Sequence record: MG050172
DNA: 45,814 nt
Strand: one strand, 5' to 3'
DNA from: Escherichia phage DTL
Shown piece by piece: positions 35,110-40,967 of this stretch; positions within the stretch are counted from its first letter, which is position 1, and the number at the start of each line of letters is the position of its first letter. The notes beneath the pieces were generated by a model, which was given only the letters and a program-made list of their open reading frames with translations, ran no database searches and was not told the DNA's origin. Both the position numbers and the translations under genes were made by a program.

Positions 35110-35583
35110 ATGGAATACAAACTCTACTTCAATTACGACAATGGAAAGTTGATATGGAAAGTCAAAAAGAAATCAGGAAATCCGGGCTCAGAGGCTGGTA
35201 GTGTGATGAGGGATGGTTACATCATGGTTGGTTTAAATAGAAAACTAATTCTTGCTCACAGAATAGTTTGGGAAATGCTTAAAGGCCCGATACCTGAAGG
35301 TATGGAGATTGATCATATTAATCATTGTAGGTCAGACAATAGGATAGAAAACTTAAGGATGGTGAGTAAGCCGATAAATCAAAGAAATAGATCGAGATCA
35401 AAAAATAACACAAGCGTATTCACGGGAGTTTGTTGGAGTAAGTCAGCTTCAAAGTTGGTCTCATCAATGAAAGTTAACGGGAAAAAAATTCATCTTGGAT
35501 CGTTCGATGAAATACAAGATGCAATAGCTGCAAGAAAGTCAGCAAACCAAAAGTATAAATTTCACAAAAATCATGGAGAATAA
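35110..35583 (+). CDS. HNH homing endonuclease
   Basis: Motif HRIVWEMLKGPIPEGMEIDHINHCRSDNRIENLR. Confidence 0.8.
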   Translation: MEYKLYFNYDNGKLIWKVKKKSGNPGSEAGSVMRDGYIMVGLNRKLILAHRIVWEMLKGPIPEGMEIDHINHCRSDNRIENLRMVSKPINQRNRSRSKNNTSVFTGVCWSKSASKLVSSMKVNGKKIHLGSFDEIQDAIAARKSANQKYKFHKNHGE

Positions 35584-36550
35584 AATGTTTAAGGTTTTTA
35601 CGCGAGAAGAGTTAAGCAACGAAGAGTATCACTCAGAGTCTGACCACATCTCCGGTAGCTCACTTGTCGAGATTATCCAGGGCTCGCCAGCTAAGTGGAA
35701 ATTCAAGCGGCGTAATAGCGACAGCAAGGCGCTAAAGTTTGGAACCCTAAGCCACACGATGATTCTGGAGCAGGATGTATTTGATAAAGAATACCTTCGC
35801 GAAACCGATCTTGATGCCATCGAAGGCTTAATTACAAGCCAGACCGGATTATCAGCAGCACTTAAAAAAGTTGGCGTAGCTGGCACGTCTGGGAAGGGGT
35901 ATAGCGAGCTCGTAGAGATGATGTATCGTTCAGGTGAGTATTGGGATGTTAAATGGCTAATTGAGCAGCAGGATAGTGCTCAGGCTATTGCGGAGGGCAA
36001 GGAGCTAGTTAGCGCAGCAGATTACGACAAGGTTGTCGCGATGCGCGAGGTTCTTTGTAATATTCCTGCGTATGATGCAATTGTGAACAGTGAGACTGCG
36101 CAGAAGGAGTTATCAATCTTCGGTGAGATTCTAGGTGTTGGCGTTAAGATTCGAATTGACCACGTAGATGTTATTGATGGGGTTGTATGCATTACCGACC
36201 TGAAGACGACAGCCAGCGCATCACCTCAGGAGTTTGGTAGACTTGCATTCAAGCATGGTTATCTTGCAAAAATGGCGCTACAGCACGATGTTTTTGTTAG
36301 GGCTTTTAATGAAAAAAGAAAAACAAAAGTAAGGCTACTTGCGATCGAGAAAGAGGAGCCTTACCTACCAATGCTTTACAGCATTACAGAAGAGCAACTG
36401 AAGGTTGGCCGCAGGATGTATTTAGAGGCGCTTGCCACTTACAAAAAGTGCAAAGAGAATGATGAGTGGCCAGGTTATGCAATGGGCGCAACAGAGATTG
36501 ATTTAGATGTTCCTGAGTGGGATATGAGGAAGTATAGAGATGAAATATAG
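35573..36550 (+). CDS. PD-(D/E)XK family exonuclease (RecE/YqaJ-like recombination nuclease)
   Basis: Motif ITDLKT (D-x-K core); sits upstream of the ERF and SSB genes. Confidence 0.55.
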   Translation: MENKMFKVFTREELSNEEYHSESDHISGSSLVEIIQGSPAKWKFKRRNSDSKALKFGTLSHTMILEQDVFDKEYLRETDLDAIEGLITSQTGLSAALKKVGVAGTSGKGYSELVEMMYRSGEYWDVKWLIEQQDSAQAIAEGKELVSAADYDKVVAMREVLCNIPAYDAIVNSETAQKELSIFGEILGVGVKIRIDHVDVIDGVVCITDLKTTASASPQEFGRLAFKHGYLAKMALQHDVFVRAFNEKRKTKVRLLAIEKEEPYLPMLYSITEEQLKVGRRMYLEALATYKKCKENDEWPGYAMGATEIDLDVPEWDMRKYRDEI

Positions 36551-36619
36551 CACTAATTGCTAAAGACAAAATTAACGAGTGGGGTATGATTGCCACATCA
36601 ACAACGAACGAGGTTAAAG

Positions 36620-37270
36620 ATGCAAATTTCAGAGTCATGCAAGTCAATTTTAAACGCGCTACACACTGCTAAATCGCTATTTGCGAAGGCTGAAAAGTCT
36701 AAGCAGAACTCACACCTAAAGAACAAGTACGCAACCCTTGAAGACGTTTTGGCTGCTGTTGAGCCAGGACTTGATGAGTGCGGGCTGGTAATGTTCCAGA
36801 GCGTACTTGATGATGAACAAACGAATCGAATGAAGGTTGAGACAAAGCTATTTCACGCAGAATCTGGAGAGTGGGTTAGCTTCTTAATGATTGTACCAAT
36901 CAGCAAGAATGACGCGCAAGGTTACGGCTCAGCTTTAACATACGCTCGTCGCTACGGAATCACGGCGGCATTAGGACTTAGCCAGGCAGATGATGATGGA
37001 AATCTTGCAGCGAAGGGTGTCAAGGATTTCAAACGAGAGCTAGAGAAATGCAATGCTCTTGATGAACTGCGTAACGTCTGGAAAGAAGCAAAGCAGTCAC
37101 TTGACGCTGCCGGATGGAAGGTTTTTGAGCCACACATCATCGAGCGCAAGGCAGAGATTGAGGCAAACGCAGCAACTGGCTTCAACCCGGCAACACCAAA
37201 GAAAGTTGCAGAAAAAAGTAGTGCTAATGAAAAGACTGAAGTAGAATCACAACAAATCGACACATTCTGA
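36620..37270 (+). CDS. ERF-family single-strand annealing protein
   Basis: Motif GSALTYARRYGI; internal ATG 36620 with RBS GAGG preferred over track start 36590. Confidence 0.6.
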   Translation: MQISESCKSILNALHTAKSLFAKAEKSKQNSHLKNKYATLEDVLAAVEPGLDECGLVMFQSVLDDEQTNRMKVETKLFHAESGEWVSFLMIVPISKNDAQGYGSALTYARRYGITAALGLSQADDDGNLAAKGVKDFKRELEKCNALDELRNVWKEAKQSLDAAGWKVFEPHIIERKAEIEANAATGFNPATPKKVAEKSSANEKTEVESQQIDTF

Positions 37271-37311: not shown

Positions 37312-37734
37312 ATGCACGTAATTACTGGTCAGATTCGCCGCGCTCCATTCACTAAAGAAGGTCAAAACGCAAATGGTAACTGGAAAATGTTTGCGGTTGA
37401 CTTGAGTGAGAGATACAAGGATAAAGATGGGCAAACTCAGTACACTAACTATCGCGCTGTGCTTTTCGCTAAAGAGTCAATGCTAGATTGGTACAATGAA
37501 GCATTTCAAGAGGGTAAGGTTGTTAGCGTTAGCGCTGAAAGTCTGGCTGTTGATGTTCGTGATAAAGATGGTAAGACTTACGTAACGATTAACATGAATA
37601 ACCCTCGACTTGAGTTTAGTCAGCGTGGTGAAGGCGGTCAGCAACAACAGAAACCGCAGCAACAACAACAGCAGCAACAACAGCAGCGACAGCCGCAACA
37701 GCAAAACACATTCGACGGAGATATCCCATTCTGA
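37312..37734 (+). CDS. single-stranded DNA-binding protein (SSB)
   Basis: OB-fold-like N-terminus, Gln-rich linker, C-terminal DGDIPF tail. Confidence 0.8.
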   Translation: MHVITGQIRRAPFTKEGQNANGNWKMFAVDLSERYKDKDGQTQYTNYRAVLFAKESMLDWYNEAFQEGKVVSVSAESLAVDVRDKDGKTYVTINMNNPRLEFSQRGEGGQQQQKPQQQQQQQQQQRQPQQQNTFDGDIPF

Positions 37735-37741
37735 TAAAAAG

Positions 37742-37767
37742 ATAAAGCCCCTTTCGGGGCTTTTTTT
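37742..37767. terminator. bidirectional terminator
   Basis: A-run, AGCCCC-TTTC-GGGGCT, T7 run. Confidence 0.7.
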
Positions 37768-38563
37768 ATGGAGCTACAATCATGAATGATATGAAAACAG
37801 ACTGTGAACCACTTGTGTTTGGCGATATCACTACTGCATTACCAGTTGTTAATTCATATGCTCTTATTAATACGTAGGCATAACCATCACCATCGACAGA
37901 AAAATTACCTATTGTTGCAGTTTTGGCTGGTGAGCCATCTCCAGTTATTGAGCAAAATAATAGAGGTCTGAGTTCCCCAGTAGTGCCAGCGTAATTGGAG
38001 TATTTGTGACTAAGAGTTACCCTAAATGTAGTTCTGTCTTCAGCTCGTACAGAAGCAACGCCGAAGTTTGAAAAAGTAGATGAAAGCTCAGGAGCTATGC
38101 TGTTTGTTGATCTAACCATTCCAGATGCAATAACTCGATAAGTTGAGTATCTTGATGATCCTCCAACAATCTTAACTCTAGGATTTGAGAATGTGGAAAC
38201 CGTATTCGATTGCGCACCATTGTTTCCAACCCTGAAAAGAACAAGAACAGTGCTACCATTTATTGGCGCAACATATCTCATTACTTGCTCTGAGTTTCTA
38301 TTAGATACCGGTATTGGGTTAGAGTAAACAACATTTGATAGTGAATCAACGCAAATGTCAACGGAAGCGCCAGGTGAGCCTGTACATTTTGCTTTTACCC
38401 TAAACTCAATACAATCACCAGGGCCTATTAAATACTGCGCATATCTGTATGTTTCCACACCACTACAAACAAGAGTCCACGCGGATACATTACTCGTTCC
38501 AGATGGCGTTCTAGACACCCAAACTCCACTGTCGAAAGATGCAGTAGTCATTAAGTTGCTCAT
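37766..38563 (-). CDS. hypothetical protein co-transcribed with tail fiber
   Basis: Ser/Thr/Gly/Asn-rich; ATG 38563 after RBS AAGGA chosen over track start 38629. Confidence 0.4.
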   Translation of the reverse strand: MSNLMTTASFDSGVWVSRTPSGTSNVSAWTLVCSGVETYRYAQYLIGPGDCIEFRVKAKCTGSPGASVDICVDSLSNVVYSNPIPVSNRNSEQVMRYVAPINGSTVLVLFRVGNNGAQSNTVSTFSNPRVKIVGGSSRYSTYRVIASGMVRSTNSIAPELSSTFSNFGVASVRAEDRTTFRVTLSHKYSNYAGTTGELRPLLFCSITGDGSPAKTATIGNFSVDGDGYAYVLIRAYELTTGNAVVISPNTSGSQSVFISFMIVAP

Positions 38564-38579
38564 AAATGAATCCTTAAAA

Positions 38580-39956
38580 TTAGTTGAATGAGTAAATTGG
38601 CTCGTTAAACATAAACTTATTAAACCCATGACTTAGTGCTAGCCTTGCTGAAACTGGCGTATCAAGAGTCCATAGTGAGTGTTGCAATCCTGCCACCTCC
38701 AGCTTTTTCAAAAGCTCCTTACTTGCCCTCCACGCTTGAAACTGAATGTAGCACTTACCTAGAGATTTTCCATCCTGAATTACGGAGTCTGTAACTTCGC
38801 CATATATAAGGTATCCAACAGCTATATCTTTGTCTAGTTCTCTGACCTTTTGTAACTTGCTTATGTCAGCAGCGCAAAGAACGCACAAGTTTTCCATTCC
38901 AAGCTCTTTAACCATATCAACTACAATTGATGCGTCATCAGTACTTCTTAAATGAGCAAGTTCTGCGTAAATTTTACACCCTCTTGACTTGCAGAAGAGT
39001 AGTACATCATAGAGCAGTGGAACTGGTTCCCCTGCGTACCTATAGGTGCTGAATTTAGATCCAGCATCAAGACCAAGAACATATGAAGATTGAAGCTGTG
39101 TAGTAATGCCAGTTCCGTTGGTTGTTCTTGATACATTTTCATCATGCATTAGTACCGGAATACCATCCAAGGTAATTGAAATATCACATTCCAGAGCATT
39201 TGCCCCAAGTGAAAGCGAACCCTCCATTGCTGCCATTGTGTTTTCAGGGAAAACCAAAGAAAAACCACGATGAGCAATTAGTTCTTGCTTCTGATTTTCG
39301 TACCTGTCAGATTGCATTCTTGAGTAAACATCAATATTCTGCCTTGCTAGTGGCTTGTCCGTTAAATCAGAGAATGCCAAATCCTTTCTTAATAAGTTTT
39401 GCGTATCAAGTGATGCGGCATAATCTGCAGCTTCCAGAGCCGATTCCGCTGCCGCATCTTTATATGTTGATGCACTACTGGCGCTTGCAGCCGCTGCATC
39501 CTTGTCAGTTGAAACCTGAGATGCATCAGATGATACCTGAGCAGCAATAGTAACAATTTCTACAAATTGTGTGTTAACTTGGCTTACATCATTTGAAAAT
39601 TTATCCTGATCAAAATCCTTAAAAATATCAACCGCTGTTGAAACCTCTGTTTCGCGTGACTGATAATATCGAAGAGTCTCCGCAACATCCTGAGCCAACC
39701 CCTGAACACTAATTCCGTCATGCGCAAGGATCGCATAACCCGTTCCAACAGGAACAGTTTCGCCATTAGGGTTGTATACAGCCATTGATGTGTCACTGGT
39801 GATTTCAGAGATGGTGTAAATCTGTACTGGCTCCGTTTTAAAAACTAAGGTAGAACCAACTCTAATCAATGTTAGTGGCATAGTCCATTGAGTGCCAACG
39901 CCAGTAACTTGGCCGTTAGCGGCTAAACTGGCAGTACCAGTATCATAAATTGCCAT
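38580..39956 (-). CDS. tail fiber protein with C-terminal glycerophosphodiester phosphodiesterase (GDPD) domain
   Basis: GDPD signature AHRGFSLVFPENTMAAMEGSLSLGANALECDISITLDGIPVLMHDENV; ATG 39956 after RBS GGAG. Confidence 0.6.
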   Translation of the reverse strand: MAIYDTGTASLAANGQVTGVGTQWTMPLTLIRVGSTLVFKTEPVQIYTISEITSDTSMAVYNPNGETVPVGTGYAILAHDGISVQGLAQDVAETLRYYQSRETEVSTAVDIFKDFDQDKFSNDVSQVNTQFVEIVTIAAQVSSDASQVSTDKDAAAASASSASTYKDAAAESALEAADYAASLDTQNLLRKDLAFSDLTDKPLARQNIDVYSRMQSDRYENQKQELIAHRGFSLVFPENTMAAMEGSLSLGANALECDISITLDGIPVLMHDENVSRTTNGTGITTQLQSSYVLGLDAGSKFSTYRYAGEPVPLLYDVLLFCKSRGCKIYAELAHLRSTDDASIVVDMVKELGMENLCVLCAADISKLQKVRELDKDIAVGYLIYGEVTDSVIQDGKSLGKCYIQFQAWRASKELLKKLEVAGLQHSLWTLDTPVSARLALSHGFNKFMFNEPIYSFN

Positions 39957-40026
39957 TGTGTAAAGTCTCCATTTGTAAAATAGCACTAATTGCTAAGTTG
40001 GATTGTAGCATCTTTCAGGTATAAAA

Positions 40027-40043
40027 AAACCTCCAGAAGGAGG
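40027..40043 (-). terminator. rho-independent terminator for primase transcript
   Basis: On minus strand CCTCC-TTCT-GGAGG followed by T7. Confidence 0.6.
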
Positions 40044-40967
40044 TTAGCTATTCAATAAATCACTCGCCTTATATATCTTCTTCCTGATGCCGCTCTTGAA
40101 TGAGTATTCATCATTTGGTATTACCACCTCAACGTTCCTGTCATCCGCAACGCAAAGTAATTCCATATCAAGATTGCACGCCACTCTCAACTTGTAGTTT
40201 TTGAGCGCATAAGCAACCATCTCCATATTGTAGCTGGAGTGGCAAACAAGCGCGCAGCGGTTCCCAGTAGCAAGATGAACGCGAACACCATCAATCCAAT
40301 TATCGACAAGATAAGCGTACTCATCACTTTTAAAGGTACCAATAACAGCAACTGACTGACGGGTATAATCTTTTGCAGCATAACTAACAACTCCCTCTTC
40401 ATTTATAAACATTACATTGCACATCTCATCTGACAACCCATCACTATAAGCCATAAAGCACGGTATTGCGTGTATTAGTTCTCCTGATTTTGTCCTGCCA
40501 ACATCAAAACCAAACTCGCTATAGATTCCCTCGTATATACTGAGCGGAGTTGATTCTACTCTTTCCGTCCTTTCCATTATCTCTAAGCACCTTTTGTGGT
40601 CAATCTGAGCGCCCATTTTGTATAGTTTGGTTCTTGATGCTTGCTTGTTTGCTTTAACTATAACCTCAATTGGTGTTAAGTTCAGCCAGTCACCAAGCAA
40701 ATTTACTGAATCGGCGAAGGACGATCCAGTGCACTTCATGACCCATCCTATACCGGAGTCACTTCCGCATTTCGAACAAACTGCCGCGCCATTTCCTTTT
40801 TCACTGCCTATTTCGTCGGTAAATCTGAATCTGTCAGTGCCAAAGCAGTATGGGCATGGTCCGTGCTTCTTACTTAGGTGTCTATCATTCCAACCAAGTT
40901 CCTTTGCATAAAATGATTTCCACAATCCGGCCATCTTAGGTATAACTTCATTCTTATCGTAATTCAT
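40044..40967 (-). CDS. DNA primase (zinc-ribbon plus TOPRIM-like)
   Basis: Zn-binding CPYCFG...CSKCG at N-terminus; acidic TOPRIM-like C-terminal half. Confidence 0.65.
   Translation of the reverse strand: MNYDKNEVIPKMAGLWKSFYAKELGWNDRHLSKKHGPCPYCFGTDRFRFTDEIGSEKGNGAAVCSKCGSDSGIGWVMKCTGSSFADSVNLLGDWLNLTPIEVIVKANKQASRTKLYKMGAQIDHKRCLEIMERTERVESTPLSIYEGIYSEFGFDVGRTKSGELIHAIPCFMAYSDGLSDEMCNVMFINEEGVVSYAAKDYTRQSVAVIGTFKSDEYAYLVDNWIDGVRVHLATGNRCALVCHSSYNMEMVAYALKNYKLRVACNLDMELLCVADDRNVEVVIPNDEYSFKSGIRKKIYKASDLLNS

Follow-up and report, generated by a model that had tools for sequence, protein, structure and literature searches.

The lateral tail fibre of Escherichia phage DTL ends in a glycerophosphodiester phosphodiesterase (GDPD) domain that, as read from its residues, is apparently intact and catalytically competent, and the gene that encodes it is followed directly by a second gene, ORF2. 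What is new here is ORF2 and its linkage to GDPD. The best explanation of the whole, which we consider reasonably probable, is a mobile two-gene receptor-binding/depolymerase cassette directed against glycerol-phosphate surface glycans. Since an apparently intact GDPD is carried on a side fibre together with a constant, sugar-binding-like partner gene, the DTL fibre and ORF2 probably make up a module for "teichoic-acid-type" cutting, rare among phages of Gram-negative bacteria. Positions are those of the 45,814-nucleotide stretch of sequence record MG050172, called the window below, and the features of the locus are collected in Table 1.

Table 1. Features of the fibre-ORF2 locus in the window.
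Feature	Position	Strand	Extent	Basis or remarks
Lateral tail fibre gene	38580..39956	-	458 aa	GenBank ATW61829.1 / YP_009795742.1, 'tail fiber protein'
Conserved Drexlerviridae lateral-fibre/tailspike virion-anchor domain	39612..39956	-	fibre aa 1-115	N-terminal identity, PDB matches
Ala/Ser/Asp-rich helical stalk	39297..39608	-	fibre aa 117-220	AF2 model, composition
GDPD catalytic domain (predicted TIM barrel)	38604..39272	-	fibre aa 229-451	Pfam, AF2 model, Foldseek
Partner gene ORF2	37766..38563	-	265 aa	16-nt gap to fibre gene, AAGGA ribosome-binding site
ORF2 first beta-sandwich, CBM4/16/22-like predicted fold	38159..38563	-	ORF2 aa 1-135	AF2 model, Foldseek
ORF2 second beta-sandwich (predicted)	37769..38137	-	ORF2 aa 143-265	pLDDT 47-79; better conserved among near relatives
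Intrinsic-terminator-like hairpin, AACCTCCTTCTGGAGGTT then T-run	40028..40045	-		7-pair stem, 4 GC pairs
Possible extended -10 element TGCTACAAT	40002..40010	-		~46 nt 5' of fibre start codon
Bidirectional terminator hairpin AAAGCCCC-GAAA-GGGGCTTT	37744..37763	both		Between ORF2 and convergent SSB gene

The fibre gene and its N-terminal half

DTL is an Rtp-like member of the Drexlerviridae with a genome backbone ~88% identical to that of Rtp-like coliphages, and the fibre protein of the window shares 100% identity with the DTL tail fibre. Its ORF runs on the minus strand from an ATG at 39956 to a TAA stop codon at 38582-38580, with a GGAG 10 nt 5' of the start. This ATG was preferred to an upstream GTG at 39986 because all fibre homologues begin with MAIYD. 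The N-terminal part of the protein matches tail-fibre PHROGs (phrog_24092, E 1.4e-65), and phrog_16641 matches it over its full length (E 2e-150). The locus lies between recombination genes on the plus strand, namely Exo (35573-36550), ERF-like (36590-37270) and SSB (37312-37734), and a primase gene (40044-40967) that shares the minus strand with ORF2 and the fibre gene. This is the position of the lateral tail fibre in Drexlerviridae, a locus at which conservation is limited to the far N-terminus (PMC8594841). Micrographs of DTL show 'rosette-style tail fibers', and the GDPD domain is not mentioned in the paper that reports them (DTL paper).

Over 100 Drexlerviridae fibres with unrelated C-termini share the N-terminal anchor at ~60-88% identity, and over residues 1-137 the identity is 77-86% to many coliphage fibres and ~50% to Klebsiella Webervirus fibres. 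The C-termini found on anchor-sharing fibres include beta-helix, pectate-lyase-like, SGNH and endonuclease/exonuclease/phosphatase family domains. The anchor is also homologous to the N-terminal domain of Klebsiella phage depolymerases (PDB 7LZJ, 7VYV and 7VZ3; E ~1e-33), and it would plug the DTL protein into the virion as it does across the Drexlerviridae. The 104 residues that follow as a stalk (19 A, 15 S and 13 D) were modelled by AF2 as continuous helices at positions 117-182, 185-199 and 202-220. By analogy, this stalk is probably a trimeric helical bundle, as the DpK2 tailspike of phage RAD2 is a trimer (PDB 7LZJ) with an extended triple-helical bundle in its homologous N-terminal domain (PMC8552709); a stalk of ~100 residues would probably trimerise the fibre. 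A preliminary description of the gene had taken the N-terminal ~200 residues for an Ala/Ser-rich, repetitive shaft. The composition holds for residues 117-220, but residues 1 to ~115 form the anchor, and a search for tandem DNA repeats in the claimed shaft found none.

In its slot, anchor and helical stalk, the DTL fibre resembles other fibres and tailspikes of Drexlerviridae (Rtp rtp50, the BASEL fibres and RAD2 DpK2), and it also follows their modular plan, in which the anchor leads to a catalytic or receptor domain and then to a C-terminal beta-sandwich. Unlike in those tailspikes, the catalytic module of DTL is a GDPD TIM barrel for phosphodiesters instead of a beta-helix glycosidase or lyase, and the CBM-like beta-sandwich module sits in a separate downstream gene. 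No Beta_helix or pectate-lyase Pfam match was found in the fibre, and its model consists of helices followed by a TIM barrel, which would replace the beta-helix depolymerase or fibre tip usually found there. Given the in-frame fusion to a virion anchor, a role of the GDPD in auxiliary metabolism was rejected. A decaying remnant was rejected as well, since the reading frame is unbroken, carries a ribosome-binding site and shows more synonymous than non-synonymous changes against the near-identical locus L001 (8 versus 4 over the final 140 fibre codons); ORF2 has 7 synonymous and 4 non-synonymous changes in the same comparison.

The GDPD domain and its relatives

The preliminary description had proposed a tail fibre fused to a GDPD domain with a complete signature, and had pointed to an HMM search, a structure prediction and an alignment of the catalytic residues as ways to check it. 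All three bear the proposal out, and together with the tail-fibre PHROGs they fully support the architecture. Pfam GDPD (PF03009) matches at E 2.7e-27, its 96.9 bits exceeding the cut-off of 23.6, and covers profile positions 1-240 of 244, and the quoted motifs are in place (H229-R230-G, P237-E238-N-T, E256-C-D258 and DG.PV..H271-D), with E332 in addition. H229, R230, E256, D258, H271 and E332 align with H17, R18, E44, D46, H59 and E119, respectively, of ttGDPD, the T. tengcongensis GDPD (PDB 2PZ0). The two catalytic histidines (H229, H271) and the arginine (R230), as well as the divalent-metal ligands E256, D258 and E332, are invariant in a set of 12 phage GDPD fibre domains with mutual identities of 27-55%; the sole variation is an E-to-Q change in PENT, seen in three of the 12 copies.

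It could be argued that such a domain is a binding module only, a lectin for glycerol-phosphate epitopes that serves reversible adsorption with no relevant turnover. Many lateral fibres just bind their ligand, and those of Drexlerviridae are thought to be non-essential binders of the primary receptor (PMC8594841). However, the acid/base histidines, the arginine and the three metal ligands remain unchanged down to 27% identity, which argues for selection on catalysis and not on the fold alone, and we regard binding without turnover as very improbable.

The domain was modelled as a TIM barrel with pLDDT 82-98, and Foldseek gave TM 0.87-0.90 to UgpQ (2OTD) and ttGDPD (2PZ0). Its best matches in sequence and fold are UgpQ, ttGDPD and GlpQ (2PZ0, E 8e-22; 2OTD, TM 0.87), in which the catalytic and metal-binding residues are identical to those of DTL. 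The model also matches the petal domain of the phi812 central spike, the C-terminal domain of phage K gp155 and the B. subtilis teichoic-acid hydrolase GlpQ, and more weakly, at TM 0.63-0.70, the lipid-acting members LPG-PLD (8GHI/NF053857, S. aureus) and lysoplasmalogenase (7YM0). Unlike bacterial UgpQ, the DTL domain is fused to a phage fibre. It is no UgpQ orthologue, as the 108.1 bits it scores with the NCBIfam equivalog NF006989 fall far short of the cut-off of 264, and the specificity of UgpQ is therefore not transferred to it. The GDPD family also holds small-molecule diesterases and lysophospholipase D, and the fold therefore implies no polymer substrate.

Precedents are phages Ld17 (JBC 2016) and phi812, in which teichoic acids are the proposed or demonstrated targets of GDPDs in the virion. 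The GDPD folds of the Ld17 baseplate and of the petal of Staphylococcus phage 812/K (9EUL, 9F5M) have the histidines conserved and are 24-28% identical to DTL, and such virion GDPDs of Gram-positive phages match the DTL domain with Foldseek E values of 3e-18 and 1e-17. As in DTL, these phages have a structural tail protein with a phosphodiesterase beside a lectin-like beta-sandwich; in phi812, the knob adjoins the petal. The GDPDs of Ld17 and 812/K sit at the tail tip or central spike, with a thick teichoic-acid layer to cross, whereas that of DTL is carried on the side fibre of a siphovirus whose Gram-negative host is without teichoic acid.

Matches to the DTL GDPD domain were found in 315 of 50,697 phage records, and the genus counts listed are mostly for Gram-positive hosts (Staphylococcus 244, Lactobacillus 18). 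The phages of Gram-negative hosts identified among the matches are Erwinia phage Snitter, four Acinetobacter records and Aeromonas phage pAEv1810 (two records); three matching records named 'Salmonella' are two bacterial chromosome contigs and one unannotated fragment of 4.3 kb. Among the cultured phages of the collection, Snitter (MZ333132) alone has a DTL-type cassette. Its 'putative tail protein' has the anchor, the stalk and a GDPD 40% identical to that of DTL over 237 aa, and the hypothetical protein encoded downstream is an ORF2 homologue (32% identity, E 5e-26). The Snitter fibre differs in its longer middle region, with 634 aa in total, and in the host genus.

The partner gene ORF2 and the cassette

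The adjacent downstream ORF, put forward in the preliminary description as a possible distal receptor-binding partner, exists as described. Its ATG is preceded at 7 nt by AAGGA, and it is co-transcribed with the fibre gene. As a genetic and functional linkage, the suggested partnership has gained strong support from locus content, gene fusions, correlated divergence and the CBM-like predicted fold of ORF2. A member of the ORF2 family lies directly 3' of a GDPD-ending gene in 14 of the 14 loci inspected (the window, L001-L005, Snitter L006, L007/L008, the KP34-like podovirus L010, L011-L013 and L014). Two proteins, P0150 and P0154, are GDPD-ORF2 fusions, with a full-length ORF2 attached in frame at the C-terminus of the GDPD. 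The identities among GDPD domains were compared with those among ORF2 proteins, giving a Mantel r of 0.885 that was reached in 0 of 5000 permutations.

The cassette loci span Drexlerviridae and a KP34-like podovirus, with one on a Neobacillus MAG contig; L014 appears to be a Bacillus-type phage contig. The cassette is carried on two different virion anchors, and in L006, L007 and L008 the gene layout is as in DTL. In Aeromonas phage pAEv1810, the GDPD-ending fibre gene is followed by a 307-aa ORF that is unrecognised by the ORF2 family HMM and has no detectable similarity to ORF2; the partnership is therefore not universal among phage GDPD fibres. The fibre and ORF2 genes of DTL form a cassette of 2.2 kb with a terminator at each boundary. 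At the 5' boundary the hairpin closes the upstream primase gene, and at the 3' boundary the hairpin was detected on both strands. The extended -10 element TGCTACAAT, read by eye from the sequence, is a tentative promoter candidate; it is absent from the sites of a sigma-70 promoter scan, which returned 11 sites against a mean of 10.4 in shuffles, showing no enrichment and no credible cassette promoter.

The ORF2 family is very small, with 36 representatives among 1.84 billion proteins, and a five-member alignment found no relatives in IMG/VR or the GTDB species genomes. ORF2 itself gave no significant match in Pfam (E<=0.01), PHROGs (E<=0.001), NCBIfam (E<=0.01) or PDB sequences. Its exact sequence is not in a collection of 15 billion proteins, which does contain the DTL fibre, and it is not in the ORF table of the DTL paper; on these two grounds the published DTL annotation apparently lacks ORF2.

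An AF2 model built from five sequences (mean pLDDT 74.8) divides ORF2 into two predicted beta-sandwiches. The N-terminal domain, with pLDDT mostly 80-94, is predicted to fold like CBM4/16/22 modules. Foldseek matched it to 1gu3 (E 2.3e-5), 8xmz, 2zey, 1gui and 8iq9, with E values of 2e-5 to 3e-4 and modest TM to target of 0.54-0.62, and the ORF2 family profile run against the PDB gave CBM4 1gui at E 0.032 and CBM22 2wys at E 0.065. Entry 8iq9 is the Klebsiella K2-2 tailspike, matched at its C-terminal domain. Among near relatives the N-terminal domain is the fastest-diverging part of the protein, with 40-44% identity versus 66-73% in the C-terminal domain, and the latter may be a docking or structural part. 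ORF2 would contribute glycan binding through its CBM-like domain, along with the further beta-sandwich, and we infer that it does so in the virion.

Small genes directly 3' of fibre genes often encode tail-fibre assembly proteins, and no gp10-like docking domain was recognisable in the DTL fibre with Pfam or PHROGs. On these grounds, ORF2 could help to assemble or chaperone the GDPD fibre, or inhibit or cap it after assembly, and be absent from mature virions. This explanation is at odds with the lack of similarity to Tfa or chaperone families in Pfam, PHROGs and NCBIfam; 29 ORF2 family members searched against PHROGs gave three stray matches, from one member each (E>0.002), with no chaperone family among them. 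It also fits poorly with the predicted all-beta, two-domain fold, in which the modelled N-terminal domain is similar to CBMs and to tailspike and fibre tips. The P0150 and P0154 fusions further place ORF2 where depolymerase tailspikes carry a C-terminal CBM/autochaperone domain (PMC8552709). This parallel in position leaves room for an autochaperone role, but an assembly factor left out of the virion is unlikely in our judgement.

Candidate substrates and significance

In the preferred reading, the fibre gene and ORF2 would make up one horizontally mobile receptor-recognition module, which would bind a surface glycan with glycerol-phosphate (or related alditol- or sugar-phosphate) diester bonds and cut them. 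By cutting them, the phage would make its way to the outer membrane, and there the central fibre J, together with its receptor-binding protein, would meet the terminal receptor. Candidate substrates would be teichoic-acid-like capsules such as that of E. coli K2, and glycerol-phosphate O-antigens. The K2 capsule is a teichoic-acid-like polymer according to the part of PMC13171606 that cites Jann 1980, and titles cited in PMC7685785 indicate glycerol phosphate in the O28ab, O37, O100, O130 and O33 O-antigens. Phosphodiesterases go unmentioned in a paper on the E. coli K2 capsule and phage, and literature searches on GDPD in Drexlerviridae or on tailspikes returned nothing beyond a mention of an unrelated host gene.

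To our knowledge, K-12 has neither O-antigen nor group 2 capsule, and we know of no glycerol-phosphate polymer on the K12 surface; the substrate proposed here is thus missing from the one host that DTL is known to infect. The phage was isolated on an E. coli K12 production strain (DTL paper). On K12, the module would probably be dispensable.

A different target for the GDPD would be a lipid-anchored glycerophosphodiester and not a polymer backbone, with the fibre acting like a phospholipase D or C at the membrane surface. This could be the phosphatidyl group that anchors enterobacterial common antigen (ECA) as ECA-PG, the lyso-phosphatidylglycerol-Kdo anchor of group 2 capsules, or (lyso)phospholipids in the outer leaflet. 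Such a target would explain a module common to DTL, which was isolated and grows on K12, and to its relative Snitter, which was isolated and grows on Erwinia. E. coli K12 and Erwinia are both Enterobacterales and both make ECA. The GDPD superfamily includes lysophospholipase D, with 8GHI/NF053857 and 7YM0 recovered here, though more weakly, and ECA has already been proposed as a primary receptor for other coliphages (PMC8594841). The closest structures are nevertheless of the soluble UgpQ/ttGDPD type (TM 0.87-0.90, versus 0.63-0.70 for lipid-acting members), and a CBM-like partner with a fast-diverging N-terminal domain suits variable glycans over a conserved lipid anchor. The cassette is also present on the apparent Bacillus-type phage contig L014, and Bacillus, as far as we know, makes no ECA. 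Taking both sides together, we hold a lipid target to be decidedly unlikely. A bolder version of the depolymerase-cassette reading would have the enzyme clip ECA or group 2 capsules at their phosphoglyceride anchor.

As a mobile module, the two genes would move among the side fibres of Drexlerviridae, the tail fibres of KP34-like podoviruses and the apparent Bacillus-type phage contig. This involves no new principle, as the swapping of modular enzymatic fibre tips among phages is already well established. The record is corrected by the description of ORF2, as its family has no Pfam, PHROG or NCBIfam model and the gene is apparently unannotated in DTL. Because the cassette is compact, bounded by terminators and found on two anchors, it is an obvious choice for engineering receptor-binding proteins in plug-and-play fashion, and a candidate stand-alone anti-capsule enzyme.

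The phage depolymerases known to us for Gram-negative capsules and O-antigens are glycosidases, lyases and deacetylases/esterases. We put forward tentatively, as a possibility, that the DTL locus holds the first recognised phosphodiesterase-type depolymerase cassette in Gram-negative phages, a mobile combination of a GDPD with a new CBM-like docking family that might open teichoic-acid-like capsules and glycerol-phosphate O-antigens. In one passage of a review, depolymerase specificities are given for many E. coli K antigens, with K2 not among them. If true, a fibre-borne phosphodiesterase would add an enzyme class against phosphodiester-linked, teichoic-acid-like capsules such as that of E. 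coli K2.

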